From: Nitrososphaerales archaeon
GTDB lineage: Archaea; Thermoproteota; Nitrososphaeria; Nitrososphaerales; UBA213
NCBI GenBank assembly: GCA_038868975.1
Contig: JAWCSA010000003.1
Span: 1 to 42,768 of the forward strand
Direction: 5' to 3'
DNA length: 42,768 nt
Part shown: piece after piece, positions 1-15,591 of the stretch
Position numbering within the stretch: position 1 is the first letter of the stretch
How the letters are laid out: each line of letters starts with the position of its first letter
Position numbers and translations under genes: made by a program
The notes under the pieces: model-generated
The model's database searches: none
What the model was told of the DNA's origin: nothing
Seen by the model: the letters and a program-made list of their open reading frames with translations, nothing else

Positions 1-246
1 ACTCATCGCATTTTGGTGGGTTCATAGATCAAGATGAGATGGTACATATTGATCTTAAAGCATGAGAGGTAGGGAAAATAGTCATCTCAGTAAAAATCTC
101 GCTATTCGGTCAACTGCGTAACTCCTAATGATATTGGTTCGTGATATTAATCCGAATATTTTGAACACATTTTCGGGTTCTCGTTCGGTGTTGTAAAAGC
201 ATGAATGAGCGTAAATAAACCTGCGATAATAGTACATATGCCAAAC

Positions 247-277: not shown

Positions 278-1120
278 ATGAAGCGACTATTAGTATACCT
301 CTTGCTTGTATCCGGAATTCTCCTTCCTATAATATCTGTTAACGCTTTGTCTGATTTAAACACGTATATAGGCATAGAAGTAGCCTCTGCAGATCCGAAT
401 AGCGGCAAATCGTACGATCCTAAAGAAATCACTATAGTCAAGGGAACGACAGTGATATGGATAAACAAGGACACGAGTGGTCATTCTGTGGTAAGCGGTA
501 ATCCTGCTGATACTAACGTAGGTAGGTTTTTTGATTCGGCATTTCCGCTTATAAGACCAGGAGCGACGTTTGAACATGGGTTTGACGAGGTAGGCGAGTT
601 TCCTTACTTTTGCTCCGTACATCCATGGATGAAAGGCAAGGTGATGGTAATGGAGAAAGAGGGATCTATAAAACCATTGGAAAACAATTCTGAAAAACCA
701 ATGGTAGCACCAACCGATAGAGGTTCACTTGACGTAGAACTCTCGCTATCTCCTTTCCCAGTAGAACCTCAACAGGAAACAAAGATGCACATAAGGTTCC
801 TTCAGAAAGGGAAGGATACGGTACAACAGCACATAGATTATAAAATATTCGTGGAGAAGGACGGTATAGAGGTATTTAGGATACCTCTAACCCATACAAA
901 TCCAGGCGAAGTAACAATACCATATTCCTTTACATCTACTGGCAACTTTATGATAGGTGTTGATGTAGAAGGCATACTCTTCCAACCTATACCAAAGGAA
1001 ACTGCAGTTTTTTCAGTTACTGTTGTGCCTGAATTTCCTGTTAGCGTAATGTTCGTAACGGCTGCTATCTTAGCATTGATGTTGTTGATAATCAGATTTA
1101 AACTAGTAAAAACTATATAA
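278..1120 (+). CDS. Secreted plastocyanin-like (type-1 cupredoxin) protein with a C-terminal Ig-like module and a PEF-CTERM anchor
   Basis: Signal peptide MKRLLVYLLLVSGILLPIISVNA. Cupredoxin ligand pattern GHSVV ... FPYFCSVHPWMKGKV (H, C-x2-H-x2-M). C-terminus VVPEFPVSVMFVTAAILALMLLIIRFK is PEF + TM + basic tail. Confidence 0.85.
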   Translation: MKRLLVYLLLVSGILLPIISVNALSDLNTYIGIEVASADPNSGKSYDPKEITIVKGTTVIWINKDTSGHSVVSGNPADTNVGRFFDSAFPLIRPGATFEHGFDEVGEFPYFCSVHPWMKGKVMVMEKEGSIKPLENNSEKPMVAPTDRGSLDVELSLSPFPVEPQQETKMHIRFLQKGKDTVQQHIDYKIFVEKDGIEVFRIPLTHTNPGEVTIPYSFTSTGNFMIGVDVEGILFQPIPKETAVFSVTVVPEFPVSVMFVTAAILALMLLIIRFKLVKTI

Positions 1121-1140: not shown

Positions 1141-2565
1141 GTGAATAGTCACTTACTATTTTCCGTTATAACAACTCTCGCAGTTCTTATTTCATTAAAT
1201 TTTATACCTGTTTTTGGACACGGCCTAGCTGGTGACATGCCACCTCCAATTGATCTTAGCGGTAAGAACGTAACAGTTTTTGTTAAGATGAACCCAGCAT
1301 CTTTGACGGCCAACGCACCTGAAGATGCTACGCTAGGAATAAGATTCTTTGATGTAAATACGGATCAAAACTTGCAGCAAGTAACATACAGAGTATGGGT
1401 AAAGAAAAGCAATAATTTATTGATGAATGAGTGGTTTTACGATCCAAACGGAGATCTGAGTATCAAAATAAGACCAACAGATACTAAACAGGTGAGGGTT
1501 TATGGAGAACAGGAACCTCAACTTGGAGGGTGGTATGGAAGAGGGAGCCCTGCCGTTGTTGAAGCGCCGATATTTCTTGAAGGTGGTTTGTACAATATCT
1601 TCGTCGAAATATTTAGTGTAAACACAACTAAGCAAATACTGGATCCACCATTGGAATTCGATGCATGGGTAAGTGTAGCAGAAGATAATTCATTTATGAT
1701 TGTTGATGATGGTAAGGAGTATCCAATTACCATAAGAACATACTTCGATACAATAGACCAATTTAGGTTCGAGGAGAGTAACAAAGTACTGACATTCAGC
1801 ATGCCATTCAACTGGGAACCAGAGTTTACACGGTATGTATATGTGGTGCACGAAGAAATTATCGTTCCTAAGGAGTTTGAAAGCTTCGTTAGATCTGGTA
1901 ACTTTGAGGCTACTGTGAATGGCGTTCAAATAGGCGGGAGGGCGTTGTTGGTAGATCCATATTCATTTGAAGACAAGTTGGTAATACATTTTCTCCTATC
2001 ACAGCAAGAACTGCAGAAGATAGGTGAGGAGATAATCATGGACGGTACATATCCGCACGAAATGCTTTTTGAATTAAGACCTGTTGAAGGAAAGCAGCTT
2101 GTCGAAGGGACTAGCATGAACTTGGTTACCGATAATGGCAGGGTAAGGATGCTACTTGCTTGGGATAAGGAATTCATTGAACCTGATACTCCTGTAAGGT
2201 TCGATATCACATTTTTTGACAGTACTACAAATATGATATTGCGTGACGTTCATTACAGCATAAAGATATTTGACGACAGTGGCAATGAGATCTTTTCGAG
2301 AGATAATTTGCTCAGTAATGAGGGTATAGACACACATGAGTATATGTTCGCAAGAACAGGAATTGCAACGGTGCAAGTGCATGTCATGGGTACAGGGCCA
2401 TTTGCATTTCAGATGGATACATCATTCATGGGAACGGCTGAAGGAACCATCCACGTGGTACCAGAATTTCCAATAGGTACCTTTATTGTGATTACAGGCG
2501 CCTTTGCTGCAGCGCTTTTAATTACACGACGGTCACTTAATACCGTTTTTAAGATCAAATACTGA
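1141..2565 (+). CDS. PEF-CTERM surface protein, paralogue A of a 458-474 aa family (function unknown)
   Basis: GTG start 20 nt after the previous stop. Signal peptide ends ...IPVFG/HGLAGD. Shares blocks EGGLYNIFVEIFSV, FSMPFNWEPEF and VHEEIIVPKEF with 2533..3909 and 7620..9044. Ends VVPEFPIGTFIVITGAFAAALLITRRS. Confidence 0.8.
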   Translation: MNSHLLFSVITTLAVLISLNFIPVFGHGLAGDMPPPIDLSGKNVTVFVKMNPASLTANAPEDATLGIRFFDVNTDQNLQQVTYRVWVKKSNNLLMNEWFYDPNGDLSIKIRPTDTKQVRVYGEQEPQLGGWYGRGSPAVVEAPIFLEGGLYNIFVEIFSVNTTKQILDPPLEFDAWVSVAEDNSFMIVDDGKEYPITIRTYFDTIDQFRFEESNKVLTFSMPFNWEPEFTRYVYVVHEEIIVPKEFESFVRSGNFEATVNGVQIGGRALLVDPYSFEDKLVIHFLLSQQELQKIGEEIIMDGTYPHEMLFELRPVEGKQLVEGTSMNLVTDNGRVRMLLAWDKEFIEPDTPVRFDITFFDSTTNMILRDVHYSIKIFDDSGNEIFSRDNLLSNEGIDTHEYMFARTGIATVQVHVMGTGPFAFQMDTSFMGTAEGTIHVVPEFPIGTFIVITGAFAAALLITRRSLNTVFKIKY

Positions 2566-3909
2566 TCTTGTCCTAGCAAATGCTATCGCTAATATAATTA
2601 GAACTGCGCTAACAGCATACACACCTGCTGGAAATTCAGGAACTACAGAAAGAAGCAGCGGTGCTGAATCGCCGCTATTGTTTATGTTTTGAATGTTGAG
2701 CATGATGGTACCTGTTTGATCCTTGCTAAAGGTATAATCCTGCACTATAGCACCGATCGGTGCAGCATGATGCTTTCTGAAAATCTCTTTTCCGTCCTTT
2801 AGCAAAACAAAATCAGCTCTGGCGTGCTGAAGTGTATCAAGCGTGTTTGGGTCTCTTATTGTAACTATGAATTTTGTAGGTCTGTCAGGTTCGATGGTAG
2901 GGGGGCTCCATGAGATCTGGAGTAGAAATTTCTCTCTTCCAGATAGAATCTCCAAGGGGAACTTTTGCACATCGCTTGGCGCAAGGGTGAATGTGGCAAC
3001 ATTCCTTTCTGCACCGGGTCCCAATCTTTGTGATATGGCTATCAATCTATCTTTTGGTACAACAAAGTGAACAGTGCGTATGTTCTCATACGAGTAATCG
3101 TCTATGATTACCTCTCTACTTGAGAGTTCAACACCGTTGAGTGTTCCTGTATAACTATTAGACATCAATTCAGCAAAATCGAGAGGGATCAGTACCTCTT
3201 CGTGTATCAATGGCACTTGACTTAGAAAGTTTACGTTCCAGTTCAATGGCATAGTGAATGCTACCTTTCTTTCTGAACTGGAGTACTGAAGATCATTTAT
3301 CTGATCATAATATGTTTTAATGAACAACGTTCTCGCGCTTTGCTCGGAATCGAAAACTTGGTAGTTGAAGGTCTTTCCTATGCTTGTATACAGATCGAAT
3401 CGCAATGGCTGCACAAGTCTGTTTTCGTACTGCTCCATGGATAGAACTGTCACACTGTAATGATATAGACCTCCACCAAGGACCCGTCCTCTCACTATGG
3501 GACTTGAGCTATCAGCAACTATAGCGTTGTAAATAGATTCCCTACTGCCAATGACCTGCGTACGATCGTTATCAACATGTTCAAATCTGATAGATAACAT
3601 GCCATCATGACTATGGAAATACTCATCAAAGAGAAGTTCTGAGGCTCGCATAAGCTTAATGTTAAATGTCACATGAGGGATTGTGCGATCGTTTGCTATC
3701 TCTCTAAGCCTAATTACACTTGTACCCTCCGTTTCTCCGTCTAGAAATGCTGGCTTCATATCGATTGTTAGTGAGAGCCGTTTGTTACCCACCAAAATTG
3801 AGTTTGATTCGACAAAACCAAGTGCCTGACCGTATATAGGCTGTTGCAGAAGACCTATCAGTATCACAACCACTGATAGTAATATGCAAATGGATATTGA
3901 AAACTTCAT
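2533..3909 (-). CDS. PEF-CTERM surface protein, paralogue B of the same family
   Basis: Signal peptide, then blocks GGGLYHYSVTVLSM, FTMPLNWNVNF and IHEEVLIPLDF. Ends VVPEFPAGVYAVSAVLIILAIAFARTRS. Its 3' end overlaps the 3' end of 1141..2565 by 33 nt (convergent). Confidence 0.8.
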   Translation of the reverse strand: MKFSISICILLSVVVILIGLLQQPIYGQALGFVESNSILVGNKRLSLTIDMKPAFLDGETEGTSVIRLREIANDRTIPHVTFNIKLMRASELLFDEYFHSHDGMLSIRFEHVDNDRTQVIGSRESIYNAIVADSSSPIVRGRVLGGGLYHYSVTVLSMEQYENRLVQPLRFDLYTSIGKTFNYQVFDSEQSARTLFIKTYYDQINDLQYSSSERKVAFTMPLNWNVNFLSQVPLIHEEVLIPLDFAELMSNSYTGTLNGVELSSREVIIDDYSYENIRTVHFVVPKDRLIAISQRLGPGAERNVATFTLAPSDVQKFPLEILSGREKFLLQISWSPPTIEPDRPTKFIVTIRDPNTLDTLQHARADFVLLKDGKEIFRKHHAAPIGAIVQDYTFSKDQTGTIMLNIQNINNSGDSAPLLLSVVPEFPAGVYAVSAVLIILAIAFARTRSVFDLKNGIK

Positions 3910-3954: not shown

Positions 3955-4629
3955 TTACTCCTCACCTTTACCTTTTCTAGTAAGGGAAACTATGGCTACA
4001 ATTATACCTGCGGCTCCAAGTCCCATTCCGATAATGCCAAAGTTGTAAGCCCTTTCAGCATCACTACCCAAATCTTCGGCTATCTTCCTTGCCTCCGTGG
4101 CACTACTTTCCGCATTATTGATCTTTCCTGCCATCTGCTCAACAATCAATTGCACCTGATTTATAGAGGATTGTAACTGCGACGCAATGTTTCTAATTTC
4201 GGTAGATTCTATAGATTTGTCAGGAAATGCTAGTTTCTGCTTGTCTTCCACATCTTCTATAGGTATTTCCGCATCCACATTGTTACCAGCAACTACTCCT
4301 TTTACTATAACTGTGTAACTGCCGAGCCTTGTTGGTATGATGGGGGAAGAATAAAGACCCAAGTGCTCAGTTGGTTCAAAGCTAAGTGTTTTTATTACAC
4401 CGCCATACCTTATTGCGACATCGACGTTTCTAAAATCGATGACAAGTGGCTGATCGCCTTTACTAAGTTCCAACACTATTGAATTTAATTCGCCCACAAG
4501 AGGAGGTTCATTCTTCCACCCAGAGACAACTCTAACATCACCAACGTTAATATCTGTATGTGCATAGGAAGAGTTGAACACCATAGTGGATAGCAATAGT
4601 ACAAATATCGAACATTTCGCTAAATTCAT
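3955..4629 (-). CDS. Membrane-anchored surface protein: predicted N-terminal His, Ig-like module, coiled coil, C-terminal TM
   Basis: The ORF is open to 4656 (TTG), but ATG 4629 (MNLAKCSIFVLLL...) sits about 30 nt downstream of a TATA-like ggtaatatttgg. Cleavage is predicted at SSYA/HTDINVG. The coiled-coil stretch SQLQSSINQVQLIVEQMAGKINNAESSATEARKIAEDL is followed by TM GIIGMGLGAAGIIVAIVSL and RKGKGEE. Confidence 0.7.
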   Translation of the reverse strand: MNLAKCSIFVLLLSTMVFNSSYAHTDINVGDVRVVSGWKNEPPLVGELNSIVLELSKGDQPLVIDFRNVDVAIRYGGVIKTLSFEPTEHLGLYSSPIIPTRLGSYTVIVKGVVAGNNVDAEIPIEDVEDKQKLAFPDKSIESTEIRNIASQLQSSINQVQLIVEQMAGKINNAESSATEARKIAEDLGSDAERAYNFGIIGMGLGAAGIIVAIVSLTRKGKGEE

Positions 4630-4719
4630 ATTCGCATAAGAATGGGTTTTGTCCAAATATTACCTTTGTGGAAACTTTATCAATCTTGTAAAAAGCGCAT
4701 AACATACAAATACTAAATT

Positions 4720-7575
4720 GTGATAGTTCGATCAATGAGACTTGATTTTTTGGGAGCAACGAACATAATCGTGCTTCTGTCCCTGTCGATCATCATAGTT
4801 AACCTTTTGCCTGTTCTTGCACATCCTTTTACTGTTGATACAGACCCAAAGGGTCTAGCTCAGCTTCAACAAGCACCTGAGAGCGTGATAATAGCATACA
4901 GTGAACCTGTTGAAGAAGGATTTAGTACCATCAAAGTACTCGATTCTTCTGGTAATAGAGTTGACAATGATGATACTAGGTATTTTCAGGGAGATAATAC
5001 AAAACTAGTCGTTACACTCAAGCCGTTAAAAGACGATGTGTACACTGTGATATCGAGGGTTTTGTCGCAGGTTGATGGACATGTTGTGGAATATACATAC
5101 GCTTTTGTCGTAGGAAATCCCAATGTTCCTATCCCAACAGCGCATATTACGCCAACCCAACCGCCTGTTTACCTACCTGAAACCTTCTCTAGATTTCCTG
5201 GGCTTGTGGGTCAAGTGATTATAGTCGGTATTAGCTTTGCATCATTATTTCTTTGGTTGCCAGTGAAGTTAGCGAACCTTAATTCTTCTATTGCAAAGAT
5301 ACGGACATTAGTTGATAGAAGATATGGTAAATCACTGCTAATTGGCGTTAGCCTTGTCATAACATCCGGTTTTGCAATGATCTTTGTGCAAGCATCATCG
5401 TTAGGGGTTGGCATTGAGGACGCTATTGCAACGAGTTTCGGTACCACATGGCTAGTAAGGATGCTATTAGCATTTGTCACACTTGCTCTATATTTTGCAC
5501 TGAGAGCAAAGAGACCTATAGGGAAGATCCATCATGCAACTGTTTTGGGTGTAGGGTTAGCCCTCCTTGCTACAACTACAATGATCGGTCATCCAGCAGC
5601 AACTACAAAACCAATTGCTATAGCTTTAGATTTCCTGCACAATATTGTGGCATCTGTTTGGATTGGCGGTCTCATGTACCTTGCGTTCGTAGCAATACCA
5701 ACCATAAGGCAATTAGGACTCGCTGCAAGGCATGCCATTATATCACTTCTCATACCAAGATTTTCAAGCATGACGGTAGTTGCGTTGGGCGCAGTTGCTA
5801 TAACAGGGCCACTGATGCTTTGGATGCTTGAGGACAATGTGAACGACCTGTTGCTTACATCATATGGTAAGCTACTCATTAGTAAGCTTATCTTGGCTGG
5901 GTTTATGATAGGTGTTGGAGCGTTTAATCAATTCAACATTCATAGCAAGGCAATAGCGCTGGTCAGGGCTGGGAAAGGTGCCACACAAACAGATGTGCAC
6001 AGCAGGTTTGACAAGAGCTTGAAAGTGGAATCTGCCATAGGGATAGCACTTTTGCTTAGCGTAGCCTTGCTTGCCAATTCGTCTCTTCCTGCGGGTGAAT
6101 TACCAATAAAAGCACTTGCAACTTCTGCTATCTCTGACAGAACCTTCAATGACAACATACAAGGATTCAGGCAAACACAGTTCACTGATGGAGCAATAGT
6201 GAATCTTTCAATTGCACCTGCAAGAACGGGAATGAATAATTTTGTGGTAAGGATAACCGACGATGCTAACGACACTATTGATGACATAAAGGTAGTTAGG
6301 ATCAAACTTACAAATGTTAGGGAAGGTATAGGGCCGCTGACATCCACCTTGTCTCATATAAAAGGTGCAGATTTTCAGGGCAATACTACCTTTACAATGA
6401 ATGGTCGCTGGAATGTGGAAGTGCTAGTGGAGAGGGTGGCAGCATTAAGTATAACAGCAGTCTTTGATGTAACGATCAAGCCTGAACTTAATGAACTAAG
6501 ATTCAACATAGAAGAGTATACGATGCCGGTGGCAGAATCCCTACCTCTGTTCCCACTGTATGACAATGGTAATCTATGGGTAAGTGACACTGCTAAGGCT
6601 CGCATCTTTAAATTTGATATAGCAAAGAAGGAGTTTCAACAATACAACGTACAGGGAAACTTGACCACCATACTTGATTTGGATAGTAAGGGAAATGTAT
6701 GGTTCTTGGATCCAGTTAGCAGAACATTCGGTTACGTTGAGCCTGCTAGTGGGTTGTTCAAAACCTATAGGACACCTTATTCAGGTCTTCCCATATCACT
6801 TGATATAGACTTCGATGATAACGTATGGATTGCGTTGTTGGATACGAACACAATTGTGAAATTTACACCATCATCGGAGATGTTCGAGACATTCACGCCG
6901 CCGACAGCGGACTCGCACCCGTCCGCTATAATAGTTGACGATTTTGGCACCGTTTGGTTCACTGAAGCTGCTGCTGGCAAGATAGCTATGTTGGATCGCA
7001 AGACTAGCGCTATTGAGGAGTATACTCCTGCAACGGGGCCAATGGCTGAACCATTTGCTCTGCTCATTGACGATGATAGAAAGATATGGATTGCTGAACA
7101 TCTTGGCCCCAAGATAACACGTTTTGATCCGACATTGCAAACGTTCATTAGTTATTCAGTTCTTGACAAGAACGCTTTGCCTTTTGGAATGACATCAGAT
7201 AGATTCGGAAATGTGTGGTTTGCTCAACATGTTACTGACGCTATAGGAGTGTTGAATCCACACAGTGGTAAGATGATAGAGGTTCCTGTGCCTACGCAAA
7301 CGTCATTTGTGCAATGGCTCGCAACAGACGACTTGGGAAGGATATGGTTTGCTGAACAAAGATCGTCAAAGATTGGCAGTGTGACTATTGCAGAAAGACC
7401 TGAGGGTATACCGATGGAACCTACCGAGGTGACAAAACCATTGTTCGAGGTAAGATACGCTGACATCGTTGCATCAGGTATTTCTTTGGCAATAATAGCT
7501 TCGTCGCTATTTTACGTAAAGAGCGTCCGCGATCTGAGAAAGAGTGTTAGACTAGTTAAGAGATCGGTTCTGTAA
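4720..7575 (+). CDS. CopC-CopD (YcnJ-like) copper-resistance/uptake fusion extended by a seven-repeat Vgb/streptogramin-lyase-like beta-propeller and a terminal TM helix
   Basis: The likely true start is ATG 4735 (MRLDF...), with an acaaatactaaa TATA-like box about 25 nt upstream. CopC region: LA/HPFTVDTDPKG...VIIAYSEPVEEGFSTIKVLDSSGNRV...VISRVLSQVDGHVVEYTYAFVVG. A polytopic CopD-like region follows. Seven repeats then occur: GNLWVSD..IFKFD, GNVWFLD..FGYVEP, DNVWIAL..IVKFTP, GTVWFTE..IAMLD, RKIWIAE..ITRFDP, GNVWFAQ..IGVLNP, GRIWFAE..IGSV. The final TM is IVASGISLAIIASSLFYV. Confidence 0.88.
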   Translation: MIVRSMRLDFLGATNIIVLLSLSIIIVNLLPVLAHPFTVDTDPKGLAQLQQAPESVIIAYSEPVEEGFSTIKVLDSSGNRVDNDDTRYFQGDNTKLVVTLKPLKDDVYTVISRVLSQVDGHVVEYTYAFVVGNPNVPIPTAHITPTQPPVYLPETFSRFPGLVGQVIIVGISFASLFLWLPVKLANLNSSIAKIRTLVDRRYGKSLLIGVSLVITSGFAMIFVQASSLGVGIEDAIATSFGTTWLVRMLLAFVTLALYFALRAKRPIGKIHHATVLGVGLALLATTTMIGHPAATTKPIAIALDFLHNIVASVWIGGLMYLAFVAIPTIRQLGLAARHAIISLLIPRFSSMTVVALGAVAITGPLMLWMLEDNVNDLLLTSYGKLLISKLILAGFMIGVGAFNQFNIHSKAIALVRAGKGATQTDVHSRFDKSLKVESAIGIALLLSVALLANSSLPAGELPIKALATSAISDRTFNDNIQGFRQTQFTDGAIVNLSIAPARTGMNNFVVRITDDANDTIDDIKVVRIKLTNVREGIGPLTSTLSHIKGADFQGNTTFTMNGRWNVEVLVERVAALSITAVFDVTIKPELNELRFNIEEYTMPVAESLPLFPLYDNGNLWVSDTAKARIFKFDIAKKEFQQYNVQGNLTTILDLDSKGNVWFLDPVSRTFGYVEPASGLFKTYRTPYSGLPISLDIDFDDNVWIALLDTNTIVKFTPSSEMFETFTPPTADSHPSAIIVDDFGTVWFTEAAAGKIAMLDRKTSAIEEYTPATGPMAEPFALLIDDDRKIWIAEHLGPKITRFDPTLQTFISYSVLDKNALPFGMTSDRFGNVWFAQHVTDAIGVLNPHSGKMIEVPVPTQTSFVQWLATDDLGRIWFAEQRSSKIGSVTIAERPEGIPMEPTEVTKPLFEVRYADIVASGISLAIIASSLFYVKSVRDLRKSVRLVKRSVL

Positions 7576-7619: not shown

Positions 7620-9044
7620 ATGAGAATGAAATTATTATTTTCATTTGCTCTTGCAGTATTAATTGGTATGAATGTTAACGTTAACCAAATGTTACCAAAT
7701 GCGTACGCACATGGTCTCGGTACCGAACAGACATTGCCTATGAATGTTGGTGATCGCATAGCTTTTCTGAGGGTTTCTATAGCACCAGAACTAAAAAAAT
7801 TTAATGAATTGAAAGATATTACCTTAACGATAGAAATGGTAGATGCGTTGTCAGGCCGGAATATACGGGGCGCTGGATATCATATCACAGTAGAAAAGTT
7901 TGCGAACGGCATTGTATTGCTAGAGGAGACTTTTCATGCTGCCAAGGATAACGAGAAGCTGGTAGTAAGATTCAAAACTACAGAAGGTGGAGATGTCTTC
8001 GTAAGAGGACAGAAAGTGGATGATACCCTAGGATATGTAGCAACTGACACACTTTCTGTCGAGGGCCCTGTATTTATGGAAGCAGGACTTTATCGATTTG
8101 CAATGGAAGTTGTTGTTATGGATGGCCAAATCGTGCCTATAGGCAAGAGGGCCATATTCGAGGCCTTTATCACTCTTGCCGAGAGCAGAACATTTGCAGT
8201 AACGTATAATGCTAAACAATATGCTTTAGAAACAATCTCCTATTTTGACAACATCGTAGATTTTGAATTCGAACCTAGCAGTATGAGTATAAAGATGATA
8301 ATGCCATTCAATTGGAACAGAAGTTTTGTCGAAAATGTTCCGTTATTACATGCTGAGATATTCATCCCCAAGGAGTTTTCAGAGCTGGCACAAAAGGAGT
8401 TTGTTGGACTAATTAACGGCGTAGAGGAACCAATATTTGTAGATAGATCACCACCTGACGAGGTAGTCATCCATTACACTACACCTAACAGGAGATTGCT
8501 ATCAATATCAGATATGATCATGCAAGAAGGGATGCCTACAAGCCTAGTTGAATTTGGCTTGGTTGTTAAAGATGGTACTATAGGCGATGGCGAAAATGGT
8601 TCTATACCTCCTCCTGTGATGAATGGATGGTCACCTCCAATGGAAACGCGCACTAGTGGTGGTAGCATTCTAGTACAAGTAGAGTGGTCACCGCTTATCA
8701 TTGATATTGATAAAGATACCACATTTAGATTAACATTTAGGGATCCATTGACAAAGGAAGTGATCCAGAACGTTGTTTATGACGTAATGTTGTATGATCC
8801 AAATGGTGAACATGTTGACAGATCGCATAGGTCAAGGCAGACAGCTGAAACTCAAACTTACAGATTTGCTGAACCGGGTAAATTTACATTACTTCTCACA
8901 AACGTGAACAACACCGGCGAAAGGGCGGGGTTTTCACTTTCAGTCGTGCCGGAGTTTCCATTGGGCGTTATGTTCATTATGGGTTCAATGCTTGCCATAA
9001 TGTTTGTAATATTAAGGGTTAGAGGCTTTCATGGAAAACCTTAG
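7620..9044 (+). CDS. PEF-CTERM surface protein, paralogue C of the 458-474 aa family
   Basis: Signal peptide ends NAYA/HGLGTEQ. Blocks EAGLYRFAMEVVVM, MIMPFNWNRSF and LHAEIFIPKEF. Ends VVPEFPLGVMFIMGSMLAIMFVILRVRGFHGKP. Confidence 0.85.
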   Translation: MRMKLLFSFALAVLIGMNVNVNQMLPNAYAHGLGTEQTLPMNVGDRIAFLRVSIAPELKKFNELKDITLTIEMVDALSGRNIRGAGYHITVEKFANGIVLLEETFHAAKDNEKLVVRFKTTEGGDVFVRGQKVDDTLGYVATDTLSVEGPVFMEAGLYRFAMEVVVMDGQIVPIGKRAIFEAFITLAESRTFAVTYNAKQYALETISYFDNIVDFEFEPSSMSIKMIMPFNWNRSFVENVPLLHAEIFIPKEFSELAQKEFVGLINGVEEPIFVDRSPPDEVVIHYTTPNRRLLSISDMIMQEGMPTSLVEFGLVVKDGTIGDGENGSIPPPVMNGWSPPMETRTSGGSILVQVEWSPLIIDIDKDTTFRLTFRDPLTKEVIQNVVYDVMLYDPNGEHVDRSHRSRQTAETQTYRFAEPGKFTLLLTNVNNTGERAGFSLSVVPEFPLGVMFIMGSMLAIMFVILRVRGFHGKP

Positions 9045-9107
9045 ATGAATCAAAAAACATACAAATATACGTGTAGGGATATTTGCTTATGAACACCAGA
9101 ATTATTG
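8944..9107. repeat. 164-bp direct repeat, copy 1 (3' end of 7620..9044, the intergenic spacer, and the first codons of the next gene)
   Basis: By eye, base-for-base identical to 9510..9673 (offset 566 bp). Flanking bases differ on both sides (g/a before, t/c after). Confidence 0.9.
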
Positions 9108-9610
9108 TAGATGCCTTCCTTATAACGTCAGTAATTATTCTGGCATCTACAACGATGAATAATAGCATACTTGATGCATTGGGACAGCAACCCAAACACC
9201 CAGCATTTCATGGTACAAAAACTGTAGCGGGATTTCACGTTGAGTTAACTGTAGATCCTACGCCCATCGAACCAAATGTGATTACCAAGTTTGGTACGCG
9301 TTTTATGGATGCTACTACAGGGGAACTTGCATCAAAAGTTCCTCACACACTTGTGCTTATGCGTGACGGAGAGATGATCTTCCGCGAATCCACAGATTCT
9401 GCAAGTTATTTGCATGAATTCAGCTTTATGGAGGAGCATCAGGGACCATTAACAGTTTTGATAGAAAATGTGAACAACAGTGGAGAGAATGCGGATTTCA
9501 GCTTGATGATCGTGCCGGAGTTTCCATTGGGCGTTATGTTCATTATGGGTTCAATGCTTGCCATAATGTTTGTAATATTAAGGGTTAGAGGCTTTCATGG
9601 AAAACCTTAG
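9083..9610 (+). CDS. Short PEF-CTERM protein carrying only the C-terminal Ig-like module of the paralogue family
   Basis: Probable ATG at 9089 (MNTRII...). The module TVDPTPIEPNVITKFGTRFMD...HTLVLMRDGEMIFRES...LTVLIENVNNSGENADFSLMIVPEFPLGV... aligns with the last ~130 aa of 7620..9044. The final 34 codons are identical to that gene. Confidence 0.75.
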   Translation: MLMNTRIIVDAFLITSVIILASTTMNNSILDALGQQPKHPAFHGTKTVAGFHVELTVDPTPIEPNVITKFGTRFMDATTGELASKVPHTLVLMRDGEMIFRESTDSASYLHEFSFMEEHQGPLTVLIENVNNSGENADFSLMIVPEFPLGVMFIMGSMLAIMFVILRVRGFHGKP

Positions 9611-9673
9611 ATGAATCAAAAAACATACAAATATACGTGTAGGGATATTTGCTTATGAACACCAGAATTATTG
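9510..9673. repeat. 164-bp direct repeat, copy 2
   Basis: Identical to 8944..9107. It spans the 3' end of 9083..9610, the spacer with the TATA-like acaaatatac, and the first codons (MNTRII) of 9649..10113. Confidence 0.9.
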
Positions 9674-10113
9674 CAGGTGTGGGCGCTGGTTTAGCAGTTG
9701 TTGCGATACTTGCTTATTTCGCTAGTACACAACCACAAACGACTGAAGTAAGAGAGATACATGGGGCTGGTTTGCAAAACGCTCACAAGTGTATTAAAGG
9801 TGATTTCAAGGCAGATCCATCTGCTAACATTGTAGAAATAACAATGGATGCATATCAATGGAGGTACGGTTATTGCTCCATAACGGTATATGAAGGTCAA
9901 AGGGTGATGATTGCTTTGCAGAGCTTGGACGTGCCACACGGATTTGCTATAGACGGTTATCCAGAAGTAAGTAGTACATTCATAAGCCCAAATGCGCAAT
10001 CTGTAGTAACGTTCAGTGCAGACAGGGTTGGTAGCTTTACCTACTATTGCACGGTATTTTGTGGGGAAGGACATCCCTTGCATAAGGGACAGCTCGTGGT
10101 TCAATCAAGATAA
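9649..10113 (+). CDS. Membrane-anchored CuA-like cupredoxin (cytochrome oxidase subunit II-like copper domain), orphan
   Basis: Probable ATG at 9655. N-terminal TM AGVGAGLAVVAILAYFA. The motif VPHGFAI...(36 residues)...CTVFCGEGHPLHKG matches H-x(n)-C-x3-C-G-x2-H-x2-[M], with His in place of the usual Met and Val in place of Glu. Confidence 0.75.
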   Translation: MLMNTRIIAGVGAGLAVVAILAYFASTQPQTTEVREIHGAGLQNAHKCIKGDFKADPSANIVEITMDAYQWRYGYCSITVYEGQRVMIALQSLDVPHGFAIDGYPEVSSTFISPNAQSVVTFSADRVGSFTYYCTVFCGEGHPLHKGQLVVQSR

Positions 10114-10116
10114 GAA

Positions 10117-12507
10117 ATGAAGAGCAGGATAATGGTTCCAGCAATAGCTGTTGTAATAGCCGCAGGCATAGTAGTAGTTCTTATGCTAAGCATGTATACG
10201 CAAGAAAAAATATCCATCAGTAAGGACGATGAGTTGAACTTAGCGCTATATTGCGGTTCTGGCATTGCAAAGTCTACCGAATACATAAAAGAATATGTAA
10301 TACCCACTCCATGTGCACAGCCCATAGGCATTGTTGTTGATGGAGATGGCTACGTATGGTTTGCAGAGTCTAGTGTTAGGAAGATAGCCAGGTTTGATCC
10401 TAAAATTGAAACTTTTGAAGAGTTTTCATTGCCAGATGGTGCAGTAAGTAGGGATTTTGCAACTTCTGGAATGTGGTCAATGATACTTGATGAAAATCAG
10501 GACATCTGGTTTACCGATGTTGGTGGTAACTCGATATGGAAGTTTTACCGCACATCAAAGATATTTGAGAGGTATAAAATTCCAACGCAGGGGAGTTTTC
10601 CATTAGGTCTAGCAGTAGATAAAGATGGAAAGATCTGGTTCACGGAGGCATTTGGAAAAAAATTTGGTTATGTAGATCCGAAACAAAGAATATTGTATGA
10701 GCTTTCTCCACCAATACAGCCAGATATAATGGGTGGCCTTACGATAGACCGGCACAACAATGTCTGGTTTAACATATTGCAAGCTTCTGGAGGATATGTG
10801 ATCATGTATGAGCAAGCAACTGGATATTATAAGAAGTATCCCATGCCCATAGGTGTAACATCACCTATAGGCATATCAATCGATAACGAGGGTAACGCAT
10901 GGGTTAGCGATCATGGCACCAGCATCTTCTTCAAATTAGATACAAGGAATAACATGACCAAGACATATGTTACCTCCATGCCACTCCCCAGAACATCTAT
11001 AGGTACTGGGGGACAACCAACAACTTTACCATACTGGAATATGATTGATAAAGATGGAAGGATCTGGATTAACGAGCATCAGGGCAGCATGATAGCTGTG
11101 TTAGATCCAAGCAATGGCAGTTTGATAGAATATTTCGTTCCATCGCAAAATCCTTGGTATGGTTCCTGTGAGGGGCAAGAGAACTGTGGAATTGCTAACC
11201 CATTGCAATTCGCTATGGCGCCTGATGGTAGGATATGGTTTACGGAGTGGAGCGAAAGTAAGATAGGCGTATTGAATCCAGACATTCAGATACCATTTTC
11301 ACTTGATCTGGACAAGAACATTGTTGAGGTTGAGAGAGGACGTGCAGTCAAAATTGGAATGGAAATCGTGTCAGACAGTATTGACGTCTCTGACGCTGTG
11401 TTGTCTTTATCTGGAACCTTTACACCTTCTGGGCAGCTCTGGCGTATGAATACTTTGCTGGACGCCATGCCAAACTCAGATGTTAGAAAGGTTGTGCTGA
11501 CTCTCAATCCAAGTCAATATCTGGTAGCAGGTACATACAACATAATGGTTAGTGCAAATTACGGAGATGTAGTTTATTCAAAGGCACTAGAAGTGGTCGT
11601 AAAGGAACCGTCACCCATAATACGTTCGTTTGTAAGGGGGCAAACTTTTGCAGGTTTTGTAACTGGGGATGGTTGGGTTGAGTTAGATAAAGATCGGTAC
11701 GAGGTTGGCACTTATGCGACCATCTCGGGAGGTTTCTTAAGTCATTACGATCCTGTAGAGCCAGTTTACGTTAGGGTCTATGCTCCCGATGATTCCGAAT
11801 ACAGCTCACACAAGGTTGCAATAGAACCTTCTGGAAGGTTCAGGGTACAGTTTCTACTTGATGATATCAGACTCTTCGGTACCTATAAGGTAATTGCAAG
11901 TTATGCTGAAGATAACGTAATACTGTATTTTAATGTGGAAAATCCTGCAGATAAACCAGAGGCGTTTCAATTCTCGTTCAACAGGATATCATACAATCCT
12001 TCCTTCTATTGTGCAAAATACAGTCTAGCAGGCTATGTAGAAAGTGAAGAACAGCTAAATGCAATTGAATCATCTGGGAGGATAAGAATGCGTGCAGGAA
12101 CAATAGAAAAAACAGGAGCGGAGGATGATGGTATGGCAATAAGAATACCAATAGCACCGATTGACATTGATTCTGGGTTGCGCATTGCTGTAGTGCATTC
12201 TGAAATAAATGTGTATAAAGATGGAAAGATCTTATGGAACAATCGCATCCATTCTCATTGTGGCAACACAGATGTCATTATAAAGAGTAGAAACATAGCA
12301 GTAGGTGATTCCATAAGGGTTGAAGCCCCATTCTCCATGGAAATAGGTGTCACACAACACTTTTTGCAGAACGTATATGAATCAACATACACACTACCAA
12401 CATTTAATGAAAAGGGCAAGTATACGGTAGATGCGCAACTTGTCTGGATCGACTTTTTGCCTATACAAAAACCACCTCCAGTTACGCTAAGCTTTAGTGT
12501 CGAGTGA
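10117..12507 (+). CDS. Membrane-anchored seven-repeat Vgb-like beta-propeller protein with C-terminal Ig-like/beta-sandwich domains
   Basis: The ATG lies 3 nt after the previous stop (operonic). TM VPAIAVVIAAGIVVVLMLSM. Seven repeats: GYVWFAE..IARFDP, QDIWFTD..IWKF, GKIWFTE..FGYVDP, NNVWFNI, GNAWVSD..FFKLD, GRIWINE..IAVLDP, GRIWFTE..IGVLNP. About 400 aa of beta-rich sequence follow. Confidence 0.85.
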   Translation: MKSRIMVPAIAVVIAAGIVVVLMLSMYTQEKISISKDDELNLALYCGSGIAKSTEYIKEYVIPTPCAQPIGIVVDGDGYVWFAESSVRKIARFDPKIETFEEFSLPDGAVSRDFATSGMWSMILDENQDIWFTDVGGNSIWKFYRTSKIFERYKIPTQGSFPLGLAVDKDGKIWFTEAFGKKFGYVDPKQRILYELSPPIQPDIMGGLTIDRHNNVWFNILQASGGYVIMYEQATGYYKKYPMPIGVTSPIGISIDNEGNAWVSDHGTSIFFKLDTRNNMTKTYVTSMPLPRTSIGTGGQPTTLPYWNMIDKDGRIWINEHQGSMIAVLDPSNGSLIEYFVPSQNPWYGSCEGQENCGIANPLQFAMAPDGRIWFTEWSESKIGVLNPDIQIPFSLDLDKNIVEVERGRAVKIGMEIVSDSIDVSDAVLSLSGTFTPSGQLWRMNTLLDAMPNSDVRKVVLTLNPSQYLVAGTYNIMVSANYGDVVYSKALEVVVKEPSPIIRSFVRGQTFAGFVTGDGWVELDKDRYEVGTYATISGGFLSHYDPVEPVYVRVYAPDDSEYSSHKVAIEPSGRFRVQFLLDDIRLFGTYKVIASYAEDNVILYFNVENPADKPEAFQFSFNRISYNPSFYCAKYSLAGYVESEEQLNAIESSGRIRMRAGTIEKTGAEDDGMAIRIPIAPIDIDSGLRIAVVHSEINVYKDGKILWNNRIHSHCGNTDVIIKSRNIAVGDSIRVEAPFSMEIGVTQHFLQNVYESTYTLPTFNEKGKYTVDAQLVWIDFLPIQKPPPVTLSFSVE

Positions 12508-12693: not shown

Positions 12694-13884
12694 ATGAGAT
12701 ACTTACTGGTATTTGTATTAATGTTTTCAATTGCATTGTTTCCTATTGCCGAGGGTCACCTTTTTGGAGGGGAGACGAAAAATGTTGGAGGTTACAGTAT
12801 TACGTATGCAAGCATGCCATCCGATCCCGCTCCGGGAAGTGATGTTTTACTTGCGTTCAGTATAGTTAGCGGAAATGTTGATGTTACAGACACTGTAGTT
12901 AGGATAACTATCGCTAGGGACGGTGTTATTGTAACTGAAATGCCTGAAACAGCGTATCCAACGGGCGATATCTTTATCCCTTTCATATTCAGCGAGGATG
13001 GCGTATATACGATCACCATAGAAGCACAACCTAGAGGGGAGCAGGAACCAATAGTTGTAAGTTTTGAGCAGGTTATTGGACAGGTAGGGCTACAACCAAT
13101 CTATAAGGAAACTACTGATGTAGCTAATGCCATTGCGTTATCAGTTGTATTTGGTGTAATACCTCTTTACATAGGCCTTACCAATTCAAAGCTTTCCTAT
13201 AGGTTATCGAATTCATCAAAAGGGTTTATCATTAGCATTGCATTTGGCATAGTAATCTTTTCATTGATAGATCTATTCGGCGGTGCCTCAAGGCTTGGCA
13301 TAGATTTTGGTCTGCGAGCGGTTCCATTACAAGTCACACTCTTGCTTGCCCTAACAGGTGGTCTTGCTGTTCCATTTATTGTGGAACGATATTCAAGGAA
13401 TACAATTAACACACAGCAGCTAACGGCAACATACGCAGTAGCATATCTGTTTGCTACAGCAGTGGCATTTCATAGCTTTGCTGAAGGCGTTGTTGTTGGA
13501 TTCGATCTGCAGTCCGGATATTCATTTACATTCACACAGCGCTCATTACAGGCTGCAAGTTTCTTTCTCCATAAAATAGCAGAAGGAGTTGTTATATCAA
13601 TACCTCTTATGTTGCTAAGACCAAAAACAGAAACTTTCGCATTGGTAGGTATAGTGGGATCTGTACCGCTATTGATTGGCCTAATCCTAGCATATATGGG
13701 CATTCCCGGTGTAGGTGCCTCATATGGATTTGCGTTGGGAGCGGGTGTAGCCACGTATGTGCTGTTCAAACTCGGTTACCTATGCAACATGCTAACACAT
13801 AACAGGATGATCATGTTTTCTGGCATAGTAACAGGCTTGCTCTTCATGTACTTGGCAGGATGGATTCATTCAGTAGAGGTATGA
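12694..13884 (+). CDS. ZIP-family metal permease with an N-terminal extracellular Ig-like module
   Basis: Signal peptide ends ...FPIAEG/HLFGGE. A ~110-aa module follows (PAPGSDVLLAFSIVSGNVDVTDTVVRITIARDGVIVTE...DGVYTITIEAQP), then about 8 TM segments. These include the ZIP signatures AFHSFAEGVVVGF and FLHKIAEGVVISIPL. Confidence 0.8.
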   Translation: MRYLLVFVLMFSIALFPIAEGHLFGGETKNVGGYSITYASMPSDPAPGSDVLLAFSIVSGNVDVTDTVVRITIARDGVIVTEMPETAYPTGDIFIPFIFSEDGVYTITIEAQPRGEQEPIVVSFEQVIGQVGLQPIYKETTDVANAIALSVVFGVIPLYIGLTNSKLSYRLSNSSKGFIISIAFGIVIFSLIDLFGGASRLGIDFGLRAVPLQVTLLLALTGGLAVPFIVERYSRNTINTQQLTATYAVAYLFATAVAFHSFAEGVVVGFDLQSGYSFTFTQRSLQAASFFLHKIAEGVVISIPLMLLRPKTETFALVGIVGSVPLLIGLILAYMGIPGVGASYGFALGAGVATYVLFKLGYLCNMLTHNRMIMFSGIVTGLLFMYLAGWIHSVEV

Positions 13885-14271: not shown

Positions 14272-15591
14272 TCAATACACTACAAATTGCAATTCAACCG
14301 GGCTTTCAGTAAGTGGTTCTGGCTTTGGAGAATTATTCCAGATAAAGATCTGTATATAATAGATGTCAGGTTCATTGGGAATCCAAGATTGGGTGAATGT
14401 TGATGACCCGTTTACCAAGTCGTATGTTACATAAGAGAGCTCTGCGGTATGACCGGCAGCATTTTTTATCTGGATTATATAGGTTGCCTCCACAGGAGAA
14501 GGAAGGTTGCTTAGCAATGATGAGTGTATGAAAACCTGTTCCTTTGCACCTACGGAAGTAACCTCTGAACCTGCAGCATCAACAAGCAAGGTCTTGAGAA
14601 TCTTTACACTTGATTCCTTGCTGCCATTGGAAATATTAAAAGAAGATTGGCTGAGACCTGCTTCACTTACTTTATCTTGATCACCCACATAAAATACAGC
14701 GTCAGCAATTATACCATTGTAAAATGCCATCACCTTGAAGGAACCATTTGCTTCTGTAGGCATCTTCATCCTAGAGCTAAATGTTCCATCTGAGCTTATG
14801 GATATGTTATCTGTGTATAATTCGTCATTCTTACCAATAACTTCTACCTTAACTTCTTTCTGAAGCACTACAGGGCCAACCTTTCCATAAATCTTTATCA
14901 TATCACCAATGTTGTAATGCCTTTTATCTGTTCGTACTGTAAGATGGCTTTCAAAGAAACCTAGGTAAAGCCAGTTTAGCGCTTCGATATCACGCTGTGA
15001 TATTGCTTGCTCCTGATCATCATCCGCCGGATATGCGTACATAATGTCTATCGGTTCTTCGCCATTGTCATCAAAGTGTCCGAGGTTTAATGCATGGCCA
15101 AATTCATGCAATGCTGCCCTATAAAACAACTCTTTGGAGAGAGGCTGGGTACTCTCCGTTGTGACACGCTTCCCCTTCACCACTTCTGAGAACACGATCT
15201 TTGAGTGAGTTGGTAAGATGATATCTGCTTTGGTTATGGATGACTGATCCCAGTATTCTATATAGGTATAACCGGAATATCCATGACCTGTTACTTTGGA
15301 ATGTGTGCTAACTATATGCACGTTGATATGGCAGCCGGAACCATTAGAGATTGTGTAGCTAAAATGATCCCATCTTGACTTCCATTCCTCAACAGCTTTT
15401 ACAAAGAGATCTTCATACTCTTTACTTGCTGTGCTTGAAAGACAGATCATGAAGTTCAGATTGTTTTGCCATTTGGCAGGAACGGCGTAGCTAAAGTTTG
15501 TTGAATATGCATATGAAGTGGCAGGAAGCAATAATACTGAAATGGCTAACAAAATTATCCCATATTGTAGAAAGGGTTGCTGGCGCCTCAC
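14272..15591 (-). CDS. Secreted metzincin (matrixin/M10-like) zinc metalloprotease with C-terminal Ig-like domains
   Basis: GTG start and a signal peptide ending PATSYA. Zinc site AALHEFGHALNLGHFDD (HExxHxxxxxH spacing) with a downstream DIMYAY Met-turn. The C-terminal half is beta-rich (HYNIGDMIKIYGKV...GSFKVMAFYNG). Confidence 0.85.
   Translation of the reverse strand: MRRQQPFLQYGIILLAISVLLLPATSYAYSTNFSYAVPAKWQNNLNFMICLSSTASKEYEDLFVKAVEEWKSRWDHFSYTISNGSGCHINVHIVSTHSKVTGHGYSGYTYIEYWDQSSITKADIILPTHSKIVFSEVVKGKRVTTESTQPLSKELFYRAALHEFGHALNLGHFDDNGEEPIDIMYAYPADDDQEQAISQRDIEALNWLYLGFFESHLTVRTDKRHYNIGDMIKIYGKVGPVVLQKEVKVEVIGKNDELYTDNISISSDGTFSSRMKMPTEANGSFKVMAFYNGIIADAVFYVGDQDKVSEAGLSQSSFNISNGSKESSVKILKTLLVDAAGSEVTSVGAKEQVFIHSSLLSNLPSPVEATYIIQIKNAAGHTAELSYVTYDLVNGSSTFTQSWIPNEPDIYYIQIFIWNNSPKPEPLTESPVELQFVVY

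Follow-up and report, generated by a model that had tools for sequence, protein, structure and literature searches.

A CopC-CopD protein of ammonia-oxidizing archaea with a predicted outward-facing Vgb-fold beta-propeller and its possible place in copper handling

In this study we analysed a window of 42,768 nucleotides (nt) from a Nitrososphaerales archaeon (GenBank assembly GCA_038868975.1, contig JAWCSA010000003.1, positions 1 to 42,768 of the forward strand), and in particular a gene at 4720..7575 on its plus strand that joins CopC and CopD to a seven-bladed beta-propeller of the fold of virginiamycin B lyase (Vgb). The open reading frame (ORF) runs over 951 codons without interruption. 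The database copy of the protein (cluster P0001) begins with the ATG at 4735, M6 of the ORF, which is the likely start, and has 946 amino acids (aa); residue numbers below refer to this form, while Pfam coordinates follow the ORF numbering. At the N-terminus, a signal peptide and CopC are followed by CopD with its eight helices; then come a YtkA-like immunoglobulin (Ig) domain, the propeller and a last transmembrane (TM) helix. That it is a copper acquisition protein of the ammonia-oxidizing archaea (AOA), similar to YcnJ of Bacillus subtilis, is the secure part of our reading; the propeller is discussed as a potential additional site for metal or for partner proteins. The features of the gene are as follows.

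4735..4821 (+), signal peptide, aa 1-29: hydrophobic segment 11-29, then A-H-P-F
4822..5127 (+), CopC domain, aa 30-131: PF04234, His30 and Asp114-Gly-His116, no Met
5173..6075 (+), CopD membrane domain, aa 147-447, eight helices: PF05425 and AlphaFold2 (AF2) helices
6166..6477 (+), YtkA-like Ig/beta-sandwich domain, aa 478-581: PF13115 below its cut-off, AF2 strands over 478-581
6496..7395 (+), seven-bladed Vgb-fold beta-propeller, aa 588-887: PF24684, AF2, Foldseek
7099..7101 (+), codon of His789, blade 5, in W-I-A-E-H, invariant
7228..7230 (+), codon of His832, blade 6, in W-F-A-Q-H, invariant
7456..7572 (+), ninth TM helix and K/R-rich, predicted cytoplasmic tail, aa 908-946: Kyte-Doolittle scan 910-928, AF2 helix 908-945

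A first-pass annotation of this DNA had proposed a CopC-CopD-propeller fusion with seven repeats and a last TM helix, and this was borne out by the intact ORF, Pfam, AF2 and Foldseek. CopC is recognized by PF04234 (ORF aa 35-131, 52.6 bits against a gathering cut-off of 23.3), CopD by PF05425 (ORF aa 345-451, 69.9 against 32.1 bits) and the propeller by Vgb_lyase, PF24684 (ORF aa 596-796, 115.9 against 50 bits, E = 2e-33). The YtkA match (PF13115, ORF aa 496-568) reached 23.2 bits, slightly under its cut-off of 25.9, and some of the orthologues carry a precomputed PF13115 assignment. The strict NCBIfam models for CopD, CopC and Vgb(A)/(B) scored far under their cut-offs. Since NF033808, which describes the proteobacterial CopD proper, gave 90.8 bits and remained below its cut-off of 195, the protein is a member of the CopD family and not an equivalog. 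An AF2 model built on 58 orthologues (mean pLDDT 83.6) contains a CopC beta-sandwich, eight long helices (147-174, 183-223, 234-257, 264-283, 293-324, 329-365, 376-412 and 421-447), a second beta-sandwich at 478-581, a propeller of seven four-stranded blades at 588-887 (pLDDT 90-97) and the helix 908-945. Seven W-centred repeats (W615, 656, 698, 741, 785, 828 and 871) mark the blades, and the strand 588-596 ahead of blade 1 is read as the fourth strand that closes blade 7. The best PDB matches of the model in Foldseek are Vgb lyases (2z2o, 2qc5 and 2z2p; TM-score 0.90-0.92, rmsd ~2 A). As in the Vgb structures (2Z2N/2Z2O/2Z2P, 2QC5) there are seven blades with the same W-F-T-E type of repeat, at 22% identity. 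Partial matches of the model were also observed to 9m58/9m59, a Cu/Zn superoxide dismutase of Deinococcus radiodurans (TM-score 0.44-0.46, rmsd 17-19 A).

The N-terminal part carries a putative copper site. In the family the signal cleavage consensus is AYA before and HPF after the cut (A-Y/L-A, then H-P-F), and His30 would be the new N-terminus after the predicted cleavage. Reading of the CopC sequence, aa 30-131, revealed no Met, and the domain is assigned on sequence grounds to the Cu(II)-only class, with a histidine brace of His30 and D114-G-H116 and without a Met-rich Cu(I) site. Residue conservation was counted over 147 full-length family members, down to ~29% identity. H30 is kept in 146 of these, D114 and H116 in all 147, and of the CopD histidines H286 is kept in 147 and H302 in 145; M215, M243 and M391 of CopD are likewise conserved in the family.

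CopC, the YtkA-like domain and the propeller are all predicted to lie outside the cell, and the ninth TM helix is predicted to bring the chain back to the cytoplasm. The number of CopD helices is even, the K/R-rich loops alternate according to the positive-inside rule and the C-terminal tail is rich in K/R (7 among the last 18 residues), which together place the propeller outside. The outside location that the first-pass annotation wished to see checked agrees with helix count, charge pattern and AF2 model. A cytoplasmic propeller was considered as well and rejected because of helix count and charge pattern. The C-terminal hydrophobic helix is retained in 146 of the 147 family members, and the helix sequence itself is conserved.

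The protein is an unexceptional representative of a family that is known and widespread, and not a lineage-specific oddity. A homology search returned more than 1,168 matches; each of the 120 listed ones covers 91-99% of the query and has the same Pfam set, and full-length orthologues are present in more than 1,000 protein clusters. In a scan of GTDB with one genome per species, 327 genomes encode a relative. The best 80 of these 327 relatives are near-full-length and all from AOA (Nitrosopumilus, Nitrosarchaeum, Nitrosotenuis, Nitrosotalea, Nitrosopelagicus, Nitrosothermus and metagenome-assembled genomes (MAGs) of Nitrososphaerales). Nearest are proteins of 64-68% identity, including those of 'Thaumarchaeota archaeon SAT137' and of a Nitrososphaerales MAG. 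Judged by its collinear full-length alignment, identical domain set and C-terminal TM helix, the protein belongs to the AOA CopC/D orthologous group, which is known from Nitrososphaera viennensis and other species, and comes from a different Nitrososphaerales lineage than the proteins treated in the literature. A misassembly or a missed stop codon, to which two separate genes in relatives would have pointed, is ruled out by the intact ORF and the orthologues with the same domains across AOA; the fusion is genuine.

A CopC/D fusion is conserved throughout the phylum of the AOA (Reyes et al., 2020; PMC7785015), and the AOA literature describes its CopC as being of the Cu(II)-only type. Two copies of copC/D in N. 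viennensis (NVIE_014300 and NVIE_014310) are up-regulated by 2.2-2.7 log2 under Cu limitation (PMC7785015), and the copCD region was found to be induced in biofilms in a study from 2025 (PMC12448741). In the legend of Fig. S5 in the supplement of PMC7785015, SGL (the propeller Pfam family) and YtkA are among the domains drawn for CopD proteins and are not discussed; the terms 'propeller', 'SGL' and 'NHL' are absent from the main texts of PMC7785015 and PMC12448741. Product names in IMG read 'copper export protein/CopC/streptogramin lyase', and some orthologues are named 'virginiamycin B lyase family protein' by the source databases. The architecture is thus already catalogued, and its meaning is not addressed in the AOA literature. 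A search of the literature for CopD together with streptogramin lyase or beta-propeller yielded nothing relevant and no function described for the fusion. The first-pass statement that the fusion was undescribed accordingly holds for its function, and not for the protein, which is the known AOA 'CopC/D' and appears in the supplementary legend and under pipeline names.

YcnJ of B. subtilis has the same order of CopC and CopD, followed by YtkA where the archaeal protein has its putative YtkA-like domain. Its layout is outside-membrane-outside (PMC12154828), as predicted here, and the histidine-brace residues as well as a conserved CopD His are common to both proteins. YcnJ requires CopC H24 and CopD H295 under copper starvation, and its YtkA domain aids CuA assembly (PMC13344008). 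Whereas YcnJ stops after YtkA, the archaeal protein adds a propeller of 300 aa and the ninth TM helix.

Within the propeller, H789 and H832 are invariant in all 147 family members and are therefore as conserved as the copper ligands of CopC and CopD. Residues of blade 7 are conserved as well: Q860 in 145, E874 in 140 and Q875 in 133. No other conserved His, Met or Cys was found in the fused propeller among the 147 members, and hence a cluster of His, Met and Cys, for which the first-pass annotation suggested searching the central channel, shrinks to this pair. From blade geometry, H789, H832, Q860 and E874/Q875 are inferred to lie on the face that corresponds to the Vgb active site, near the central channel. 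The HMMER alignment to blade 7 of Vgb 2z2n ends one residue short of H789; when extended, it places H789 opposite E284, which we take to be a Mg2+ ligand of Vgb. Y18, H228, E268 and E284 of Vgb were reportedly described by Korczynska et al. in 2007 as further active-site residues. In the alignments H832 falls on the His of WITQH/WFTQH, which in the Vgb structures belongs to blade 1. Compared blade by blade, the best match to Vgb is rotated by two blades (rotation sum 299, with 210 for the runner-up), and blades 6-7 reach 43 bits against blades 1-2 of Vgb and at most 28 elsewhere. A second propeller encoded in the window (10117..12507, see below) also prefers the two-blade rotation relative to Vgb, whereas the two window propellers prefer a one-blade shift when compared with each other; given these differing shifts, the blade register relative to Vgb is not secure. 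The Mg2+ and substrate site of Vgb is formed by polar residues of blades 6-7 (PMC8916777).

Could the domain act as a true streptogramin B (virginiamycin B) lyase and thereby provide resistance to the antibiotic? The Pfam Vgb_lyase match above the gathering cut-off and the names given to some orthologues speak for it. The entry 2z2p is the inactive H270A mutant, marking H270 as catalytic in Vgb, and in alignments H270 falls within A-E-P-H-G-I-C, where the innermost strand of blade 7 begins. In the fused propeller the strand-A starts read LPLFPL, NLTTIL, GLPISL, SHPSAI, AEPFAL, ALPFGM and TSFVQW, and a strand-A His equivalent to H270 was found in no blade of either window propeller in any register. 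The NCBIfam models for Vgb(A) and Vgb(B) scored 89.6 and 84.5 bits against cut-offs of 600. Furthermore, the domain is predicted to be extracytoplasmic and part of a transporter, unlike Vgb, it is tethered to the membrane, and the host is an archaeon. Because the catalytic His of Vgb is absent, the alignments indicate that the fused propeller is not a streptogramin lyase, and this idea can be considered as already contradicted; the earlier view that neither propeller has antibiotic lyase activity is supported.

Another possibility is that the propeller has enzymatic activity of some other kind. As a hydrolase resembling lyases or lactonases, or as a reductase, it would free copper from organic complexes or reduce Cu(II) at the cell surface before uptake by CopC/CopD. 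In its fold, and in where its most conserved residues lie, the propeller agrees with the active-site face of Vgb, and there are matches to the SGL/lactonase families. These matches are weak and contain no single stretch that passes alone. Other CopCD proteins carry cytochrome c (PF13442/PF00034), FixH or YtkA at the corresponding C-terminal place, and the cytochrome c suggests that an outside redox step can be coupled to CopCD. Against an enzyme, the catalytic His is missing from every blade, neither a redox cofactor motif nor a conserved Cys was found in the propeller, and no candidate substrate is known. We therefore regard an enzymatic function as unlikely.

Fusions of the same three families were also found in bacteria. 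Homology searches revealed CopC-CopD-Vgb_lyase proteins of ~950 aa in Jatrophihabitans, Nocardioidaceae, Trebonia and Dehalococcoidia (MAGs of Actinomycetota and Chloroflexota). Here CopD is followed by ~140 residues, two more TM helices and the propeller at the extreme C-terminus, with no TM helix after it, which differs from the archaeal protein with its C-terminal TM helix; the bacterial propeller is likewise predicted to lie outside. It scores 116 bits to Vgb, 120 to stand-alone archaeal propellers and 85-92 to the fused propeller of AOA. Its similarity to the AOA fused propeller thus does not exceed that to Vgb, which suggests that the bacterial proteins arose by a separate fusion event. 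Instead of His789 and His832 they have three Met that are invariant in 27 sequences, M680 and M695 (W+4, blade 1) and M723 (strand-A start, blade 2), a triad that is reminiscent of Met-type Cu(I) sites. At one bacterial locus the genetic context of the fusion is copper-related: on this contig (locus L088, 1..8889 of ERZ25039483) COX1, COX2, a CopC-CopD protein of 609 aa, DUF1775/YcnI, Caa3_CtaG and the CopC-CopD-propeller protein are encoded in a row, which ties the bacterial fusion to the biogenesis of haem-copper oxidases. After the fusion gene, with one small gene between, an OmpR-type two-component pair was observed on this contig.

The archaeal gene is surrounded by further genes for secreted and membrane proteins.

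278..1120 (+), plastocyanin-like type-1 copper protein with PEF-CTERM tail: Pfam Copper-bind, E = 6.8e-10
1141..2565, 2533..3909 (-) and, shorter, 9083..9610, paralogues of the 474-aa secreted protein
3955..4656 (-), 233-aa N-terminal-His protein: signal peptide, beta domain, coiled coil, C-terminal TM anchor
7620..9044 (+), secreted protein of 474 aa ending in a PEF-CTERM tail: begins 45 nt past the CopCD gene, no Pfam match
9649..10113 (+), CuA-like cupredoxin, 154 aa, N-terminal TM helix: motif C-x3-C-x3-H-x2-H
10117..12507 (+), Vgb-fold propeller on a TM anchor, then three beta domains: 791 aa from the probable start 10132
12694..13884 (+), 396-aa membrane protein with secreted N-terminal domain and weak ZIP-like part: mature end predicted H-L-F-G-G

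The second propeller gene, 10117..12507, begins 2.54 kb past the CopCD gene and 3 nt past the CuA-like cupredoxin gene. As described before, it encodes a seven-repeat propeller (Pfam 121 bits) behind an N-terminal TM helix, followed by three all-beta domains. In the AF2 model the propeller covers 52-393 (pLDDT mostly above 90) and the beta domains 397-491, 514-602 and 651-790; the TM-score to Vgb in Foldseek is 0.88-0.90. Both window propellers are 23-29% identical to each other and are therefore old paralogues and not the product of a recent duplication. The first-pass annotation took the repetition of propellers within one island as an argument for a metal-related role, and this argument failed. 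The second gene belongs to a separate TM-anchored family that usually has ~535 aa and is common in Nitrososphaerales, including N. viennensis; the form of 794-796 aa occurs in close relatives only. In N. viennensis and in the genome of a relative with 63% identity, its homologues lie among housekeeping genes in non-copper neighbourhoods, by which repeated propellers are ruled out as a conserved feature of a copper island. At locus L006 (GCA_030157145.1), from the nearest genome in which the 794-aa form occurs, the 794-aa propeller gene follows directly after a CuA-like cupredoxin gene (74% identical, gap of 2 nt) and does not adjoin CopCD. The pairing with the CuA-like cupredoxin is thus the only conserved context of the long form. 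In this second family D260-H261 and H316 are conserved to at least 90%; they correspond to a D-H in blade 5 and an E-H in blade 6, both at W+4.

This distribution bears on the possibility that the fused propeller is a pure docking platform for apo-cupredoxins, for the N-terminal-His neighbour or for the S-layer, without a metal site of its own and with structural or interface His. The His pair is common to stand-alone archaeal propellers outside of copper contexts, beta-propellers are common interaction scaffolds (the structural matches include WD40/RACK1-type and NHL-type binders), and genes for cupredoxins are conserved in the neighbourhood. In addition, His at W+4 belongs to the repeat motif of the Pizza proteins, which are derived from PknD. 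The invariance in 147 of 147 members at identities down to ~29%, on the other hand, equals that of the CopC and CopD copper ligands, which are of a proven type, and three Met at comparable channel-side positions in the apparently independent bacterial fusion are hard to explain by an interface alone. A docking function without metal is, in our opinion, rather doubtful.

The repeat motif of the PknD sensor domain and of Pizza aligns with that of the fused propeller, and the W+4 position of H789 and H832 coincides with the His of T-D-H in the Pizza designer propellers. According to the PDB titles, Pizza6-SH was crystallised with Cu2+ and Zn2+ (6rek, 6rej). Pizza and PknD propellers have six blades and are symmetric or designed, whereas the fused propeller has seven. 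In Pizza6-SH the metals are presumably bound by the T-D-H histidines. The matches in sequence and structure to the extracellular sensor domain of PknD and to propellers of two-component sensors also raise the question whether the fused propeller is a sensor or gate. In the manner of the PknD or hybrid two-component propellers, it would respond to a signal from outside and control transport by CopD or resistance to copper, without itself handling the metal. The conserved ninth TM helix could pass a movement to the CopD bundle. A cytoplasmic output domain is absent, the tail having ~18 residues, and the neighbouring genes encode copper proteins and metal transporters, not signalling proteins. 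A sensory function seems very improbable to us.

We compared the neighbourhood of the CopCD-propeller gene across 83 loci. Its most faithful neighbour is a family of ~210-233-aa N-terminal-His proteins, encoded directly upstream and divergently in 73 of the 83 loci, to which the 233-aa protein at 3955..4656 (-) belongs. H33, the predicted mature N-terminus (A-F/Y-A before and H-T after the cleavage site), W47, E50, P51, N58 and Y102 are invariant. Next to ycnJ, too, a small membrane-anchored N-terminal-His protein, YcnI, is encoded, although the archaeal neighbour shows no recognizable similarity to DUF1775: homology to YcnI was considered and found no support, as hhalign gave a probability of 4% against a DUF1775 protein, and neither Pfam nor a PDB profile search yielded a match. 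The 233-aa protein is hence a candidate partner with a YcnI-like layout and no detectable homology to YcnI, and its family may be regarded as a candidate for a new family of histidine-brace copper chaperones.

Among the 53 loci whose flank is long enough, 45 have a gene for a plastocyanin-like cupredoxin with C..H..M motif at most 3 kb upstream of CopCD. The 474-aa secreted protein and its paralogues form one single-linkage similarity cluster, which is present in 77 of the 83 loci. In two relatives of 63-64% identity the upstream genes (plastocyanin-PEF, 474 aa, 458 aa and 233 aa) are syntenic. The CuA-like cupredoxin has the ligand motif C-T-V-F-C-G-E-G-H-P-L-H, with His in place of the axial Met of CuA, and its NCBIfam matches (NosZ C-terminal domain, 1.4e-11; CoxB, 2.4e-8) are both well under the cut-offs. 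For 12694..13884 the Pfam Zip match is weak (E = 0.0043, 16.8 bits, under the cut-off of 35.1); a 396-aa homologue is encoded ~5 kb downstream of CopCD at locus L001. Altogether, the N-terminal-His protein, the plastocyanin-like and PEF-CTERM proteins and, here, the CuA-like cupredoxin and the second propeller are consistent with an island dedicated to copper trafficking.

Within 10 kb, five secreted proteins (278..1120, 1141..2565, 2533..3909 (-), 7620..9044 and 9083..9610) end in PEF-CTERM-like tails (V-V/I-P-E-F-P-x-G and a TM helix), and apart from the plastocyanin domain of 278..1120 none of the five has a Pfam match. Two of the three paralogues of 458-474 aa (1141..2565 and 7620..9044) have the predicted mature N-terminus H-G-L. 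A direct repeat of 170 nt (99-100% identical) was observed at 8944-9113 and 9510-9679; it takes in the PEF-CTERM tail, the intergenic spacer and the codons for MLMNTRII with which the following gene opens, and as a consequence 9083..9610 and 9649..10113 share their N-terminus, and 7620..9044 and 9083..9610 their C-terminus. The repeat has the appearance of a segmental duplication or gene conversion of recent date. An element …AACATACAAATA is found at 4682-4712, 9037-9067 and 9603-9633, ~10-50 nt ahead of the starts of CopCD, 9083..9610 and 9649..10113; the latter two copies fall within the 170-nt repeat. Possibly it acts as a shared promoter or leader. The promoter motif for Cu limitation in N. 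viennensis, TTCSGSMTTTGWACYANT (Reyes et al.), has 3 matches in the window at up to 3 mismatches versus 1.84 expected, which is not significant. Two near-matches of TTCSGSMTTTGWACYANT, with 2 mismatches each, lie at 228-245 (-), upstream of the plastocyanin gene, and at 4595-4612 (-), in the divergent CopCD promoter region.

At loci of the Nitrosopumilaceae type (L010, L022, L025, L029, L051, L062, L069 and similar ones) genes for an ABC-3 permease, an ABC ATPase, a ZnuA/TroA-like binding protein and a 127-aa NikR-like (ribbon-helix-helix) protein were observed on the opposite strand downstream of CopCD. These assignments were made by reading the sequences alone, without a family library; the genes would represent a conserved metal-homeostasis block that is absent from the window. 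Farther away in the window, a run of genes at 23856..28819 (-) encodes a 903-aa CARDB/polysaccharide-deacetylase protein, a 448-aa glycosyltransferase of family 2 and a 317-aa protein with a TackOD1 output domain, which may constitute a module for exopolysaccharide synthesis and modification. The presence of TackOD1 also agrees with a thaumarchaeal origin of the window. Nearby are the genes of a secreted subtilase (21214..23073) and of an M10-like metalloprotease (14272..15591).

Our preferred reading, to which we assign a probability of about 0.5, is a YcnJ-like protein for Cu(II) uptake and trafficking in AOA, the propeller of which is an extra outward-facing site for metal or for a partner. 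After signal cleavage, the outward-facing CopC would present a Cu(II) histidine-brace site (His30, Asp114 and His116). By analogy with YcnJ of B. subtilis, CopC would take up Cu(II) and CopD would carry the copper inward, and the outward C-terminal module might hand copper over to extracytoplasmic cuproproteins or dock them. The conserved ninth TM helix would tie the module of YtkA-like domain and propeller back to the membrane. Judged by conservation, the propeller site of His789, His832, Gln860 and Glu874-Gln875 in blades 5-7 could serve for further binding or transfer of a metal, probably copper, or for contact with a copper protein.

Metal handling is the best single reading of the propeller because its His pair is invariant and because the bacterial fusion, with an arrangement of its own, has the Met triad. 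The metal-related role proposed by the first-pass annotation is thus favoured, by the conservation in AOA, the bacterial fusion, H789 and H832 in 147 of 147 members and the bacterial Met triad, though not by the repetition within the island from which it had been derived. Our confidence is only moderate, since the His pair also marks stand-alone archaeal propellers.

Several observations weigh against this reading. The His pair is conserved also in stand-alone propellers of Nitrososphaerales and is absent from the bacterial fusions, so it tracks an archaeal propeller subfamily and not the fusion, and it could be structural. The closeness of H789, H832, Q860 and E874 is inferred from blade geometry and the alignment with Vgb and Pizza, and the arrangement of the domains in the AF2 model is uncertain (pTM 0.54). 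Unlike that of YcnJ, the YtkA-like domain scores under its Pfam threshold, and the family alignment shows no His, Met or Cys that is conserved in it. The two Cu-responsive proteins of N. viennensis are presumed rather than established carriers of the propeller. The CopC/D of N. maritimus is down-regulated under Cu limitation according to Reyes et al. (PMC7785015), and the direction of transport by CopD is still debated (literature cited in PMC7785015).

It is tempting to go one step further. Tentatively, the Vgb/NHL-like propeller might be a hitherto unrecognized, outward-facing copper station that was recruited to CopCD at least two times, with His2 (+Gln/Glu) in AOA and Met3 in Actinomycetota/Chloroflexota, and that receives, strips or passes copper between the environment, CopC/CopD and membrane-anchored cupredoxins. 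This more specific proposal is less probable than the reading above. If true, it would be a new function for the fold and part of how AOA obtain copper that is mostly bound to ligands.

The energy metabolism of AOA runs on copper proteins, and the availability of copper can limit nitrification. The CopCD-propeller protein is present in nearly all AOA, and its propeller, which makes up about one third of the protein, has been ignored in the literature. A propeller that is predicted to lie outside and not to be a lyase, with an invariant His pair and a Met-bearing bacterial counterpart, turns a vague annotation into a testable hypothesis. In summary, the propeller represents an overlooked and experimentally approachable question within a known family.

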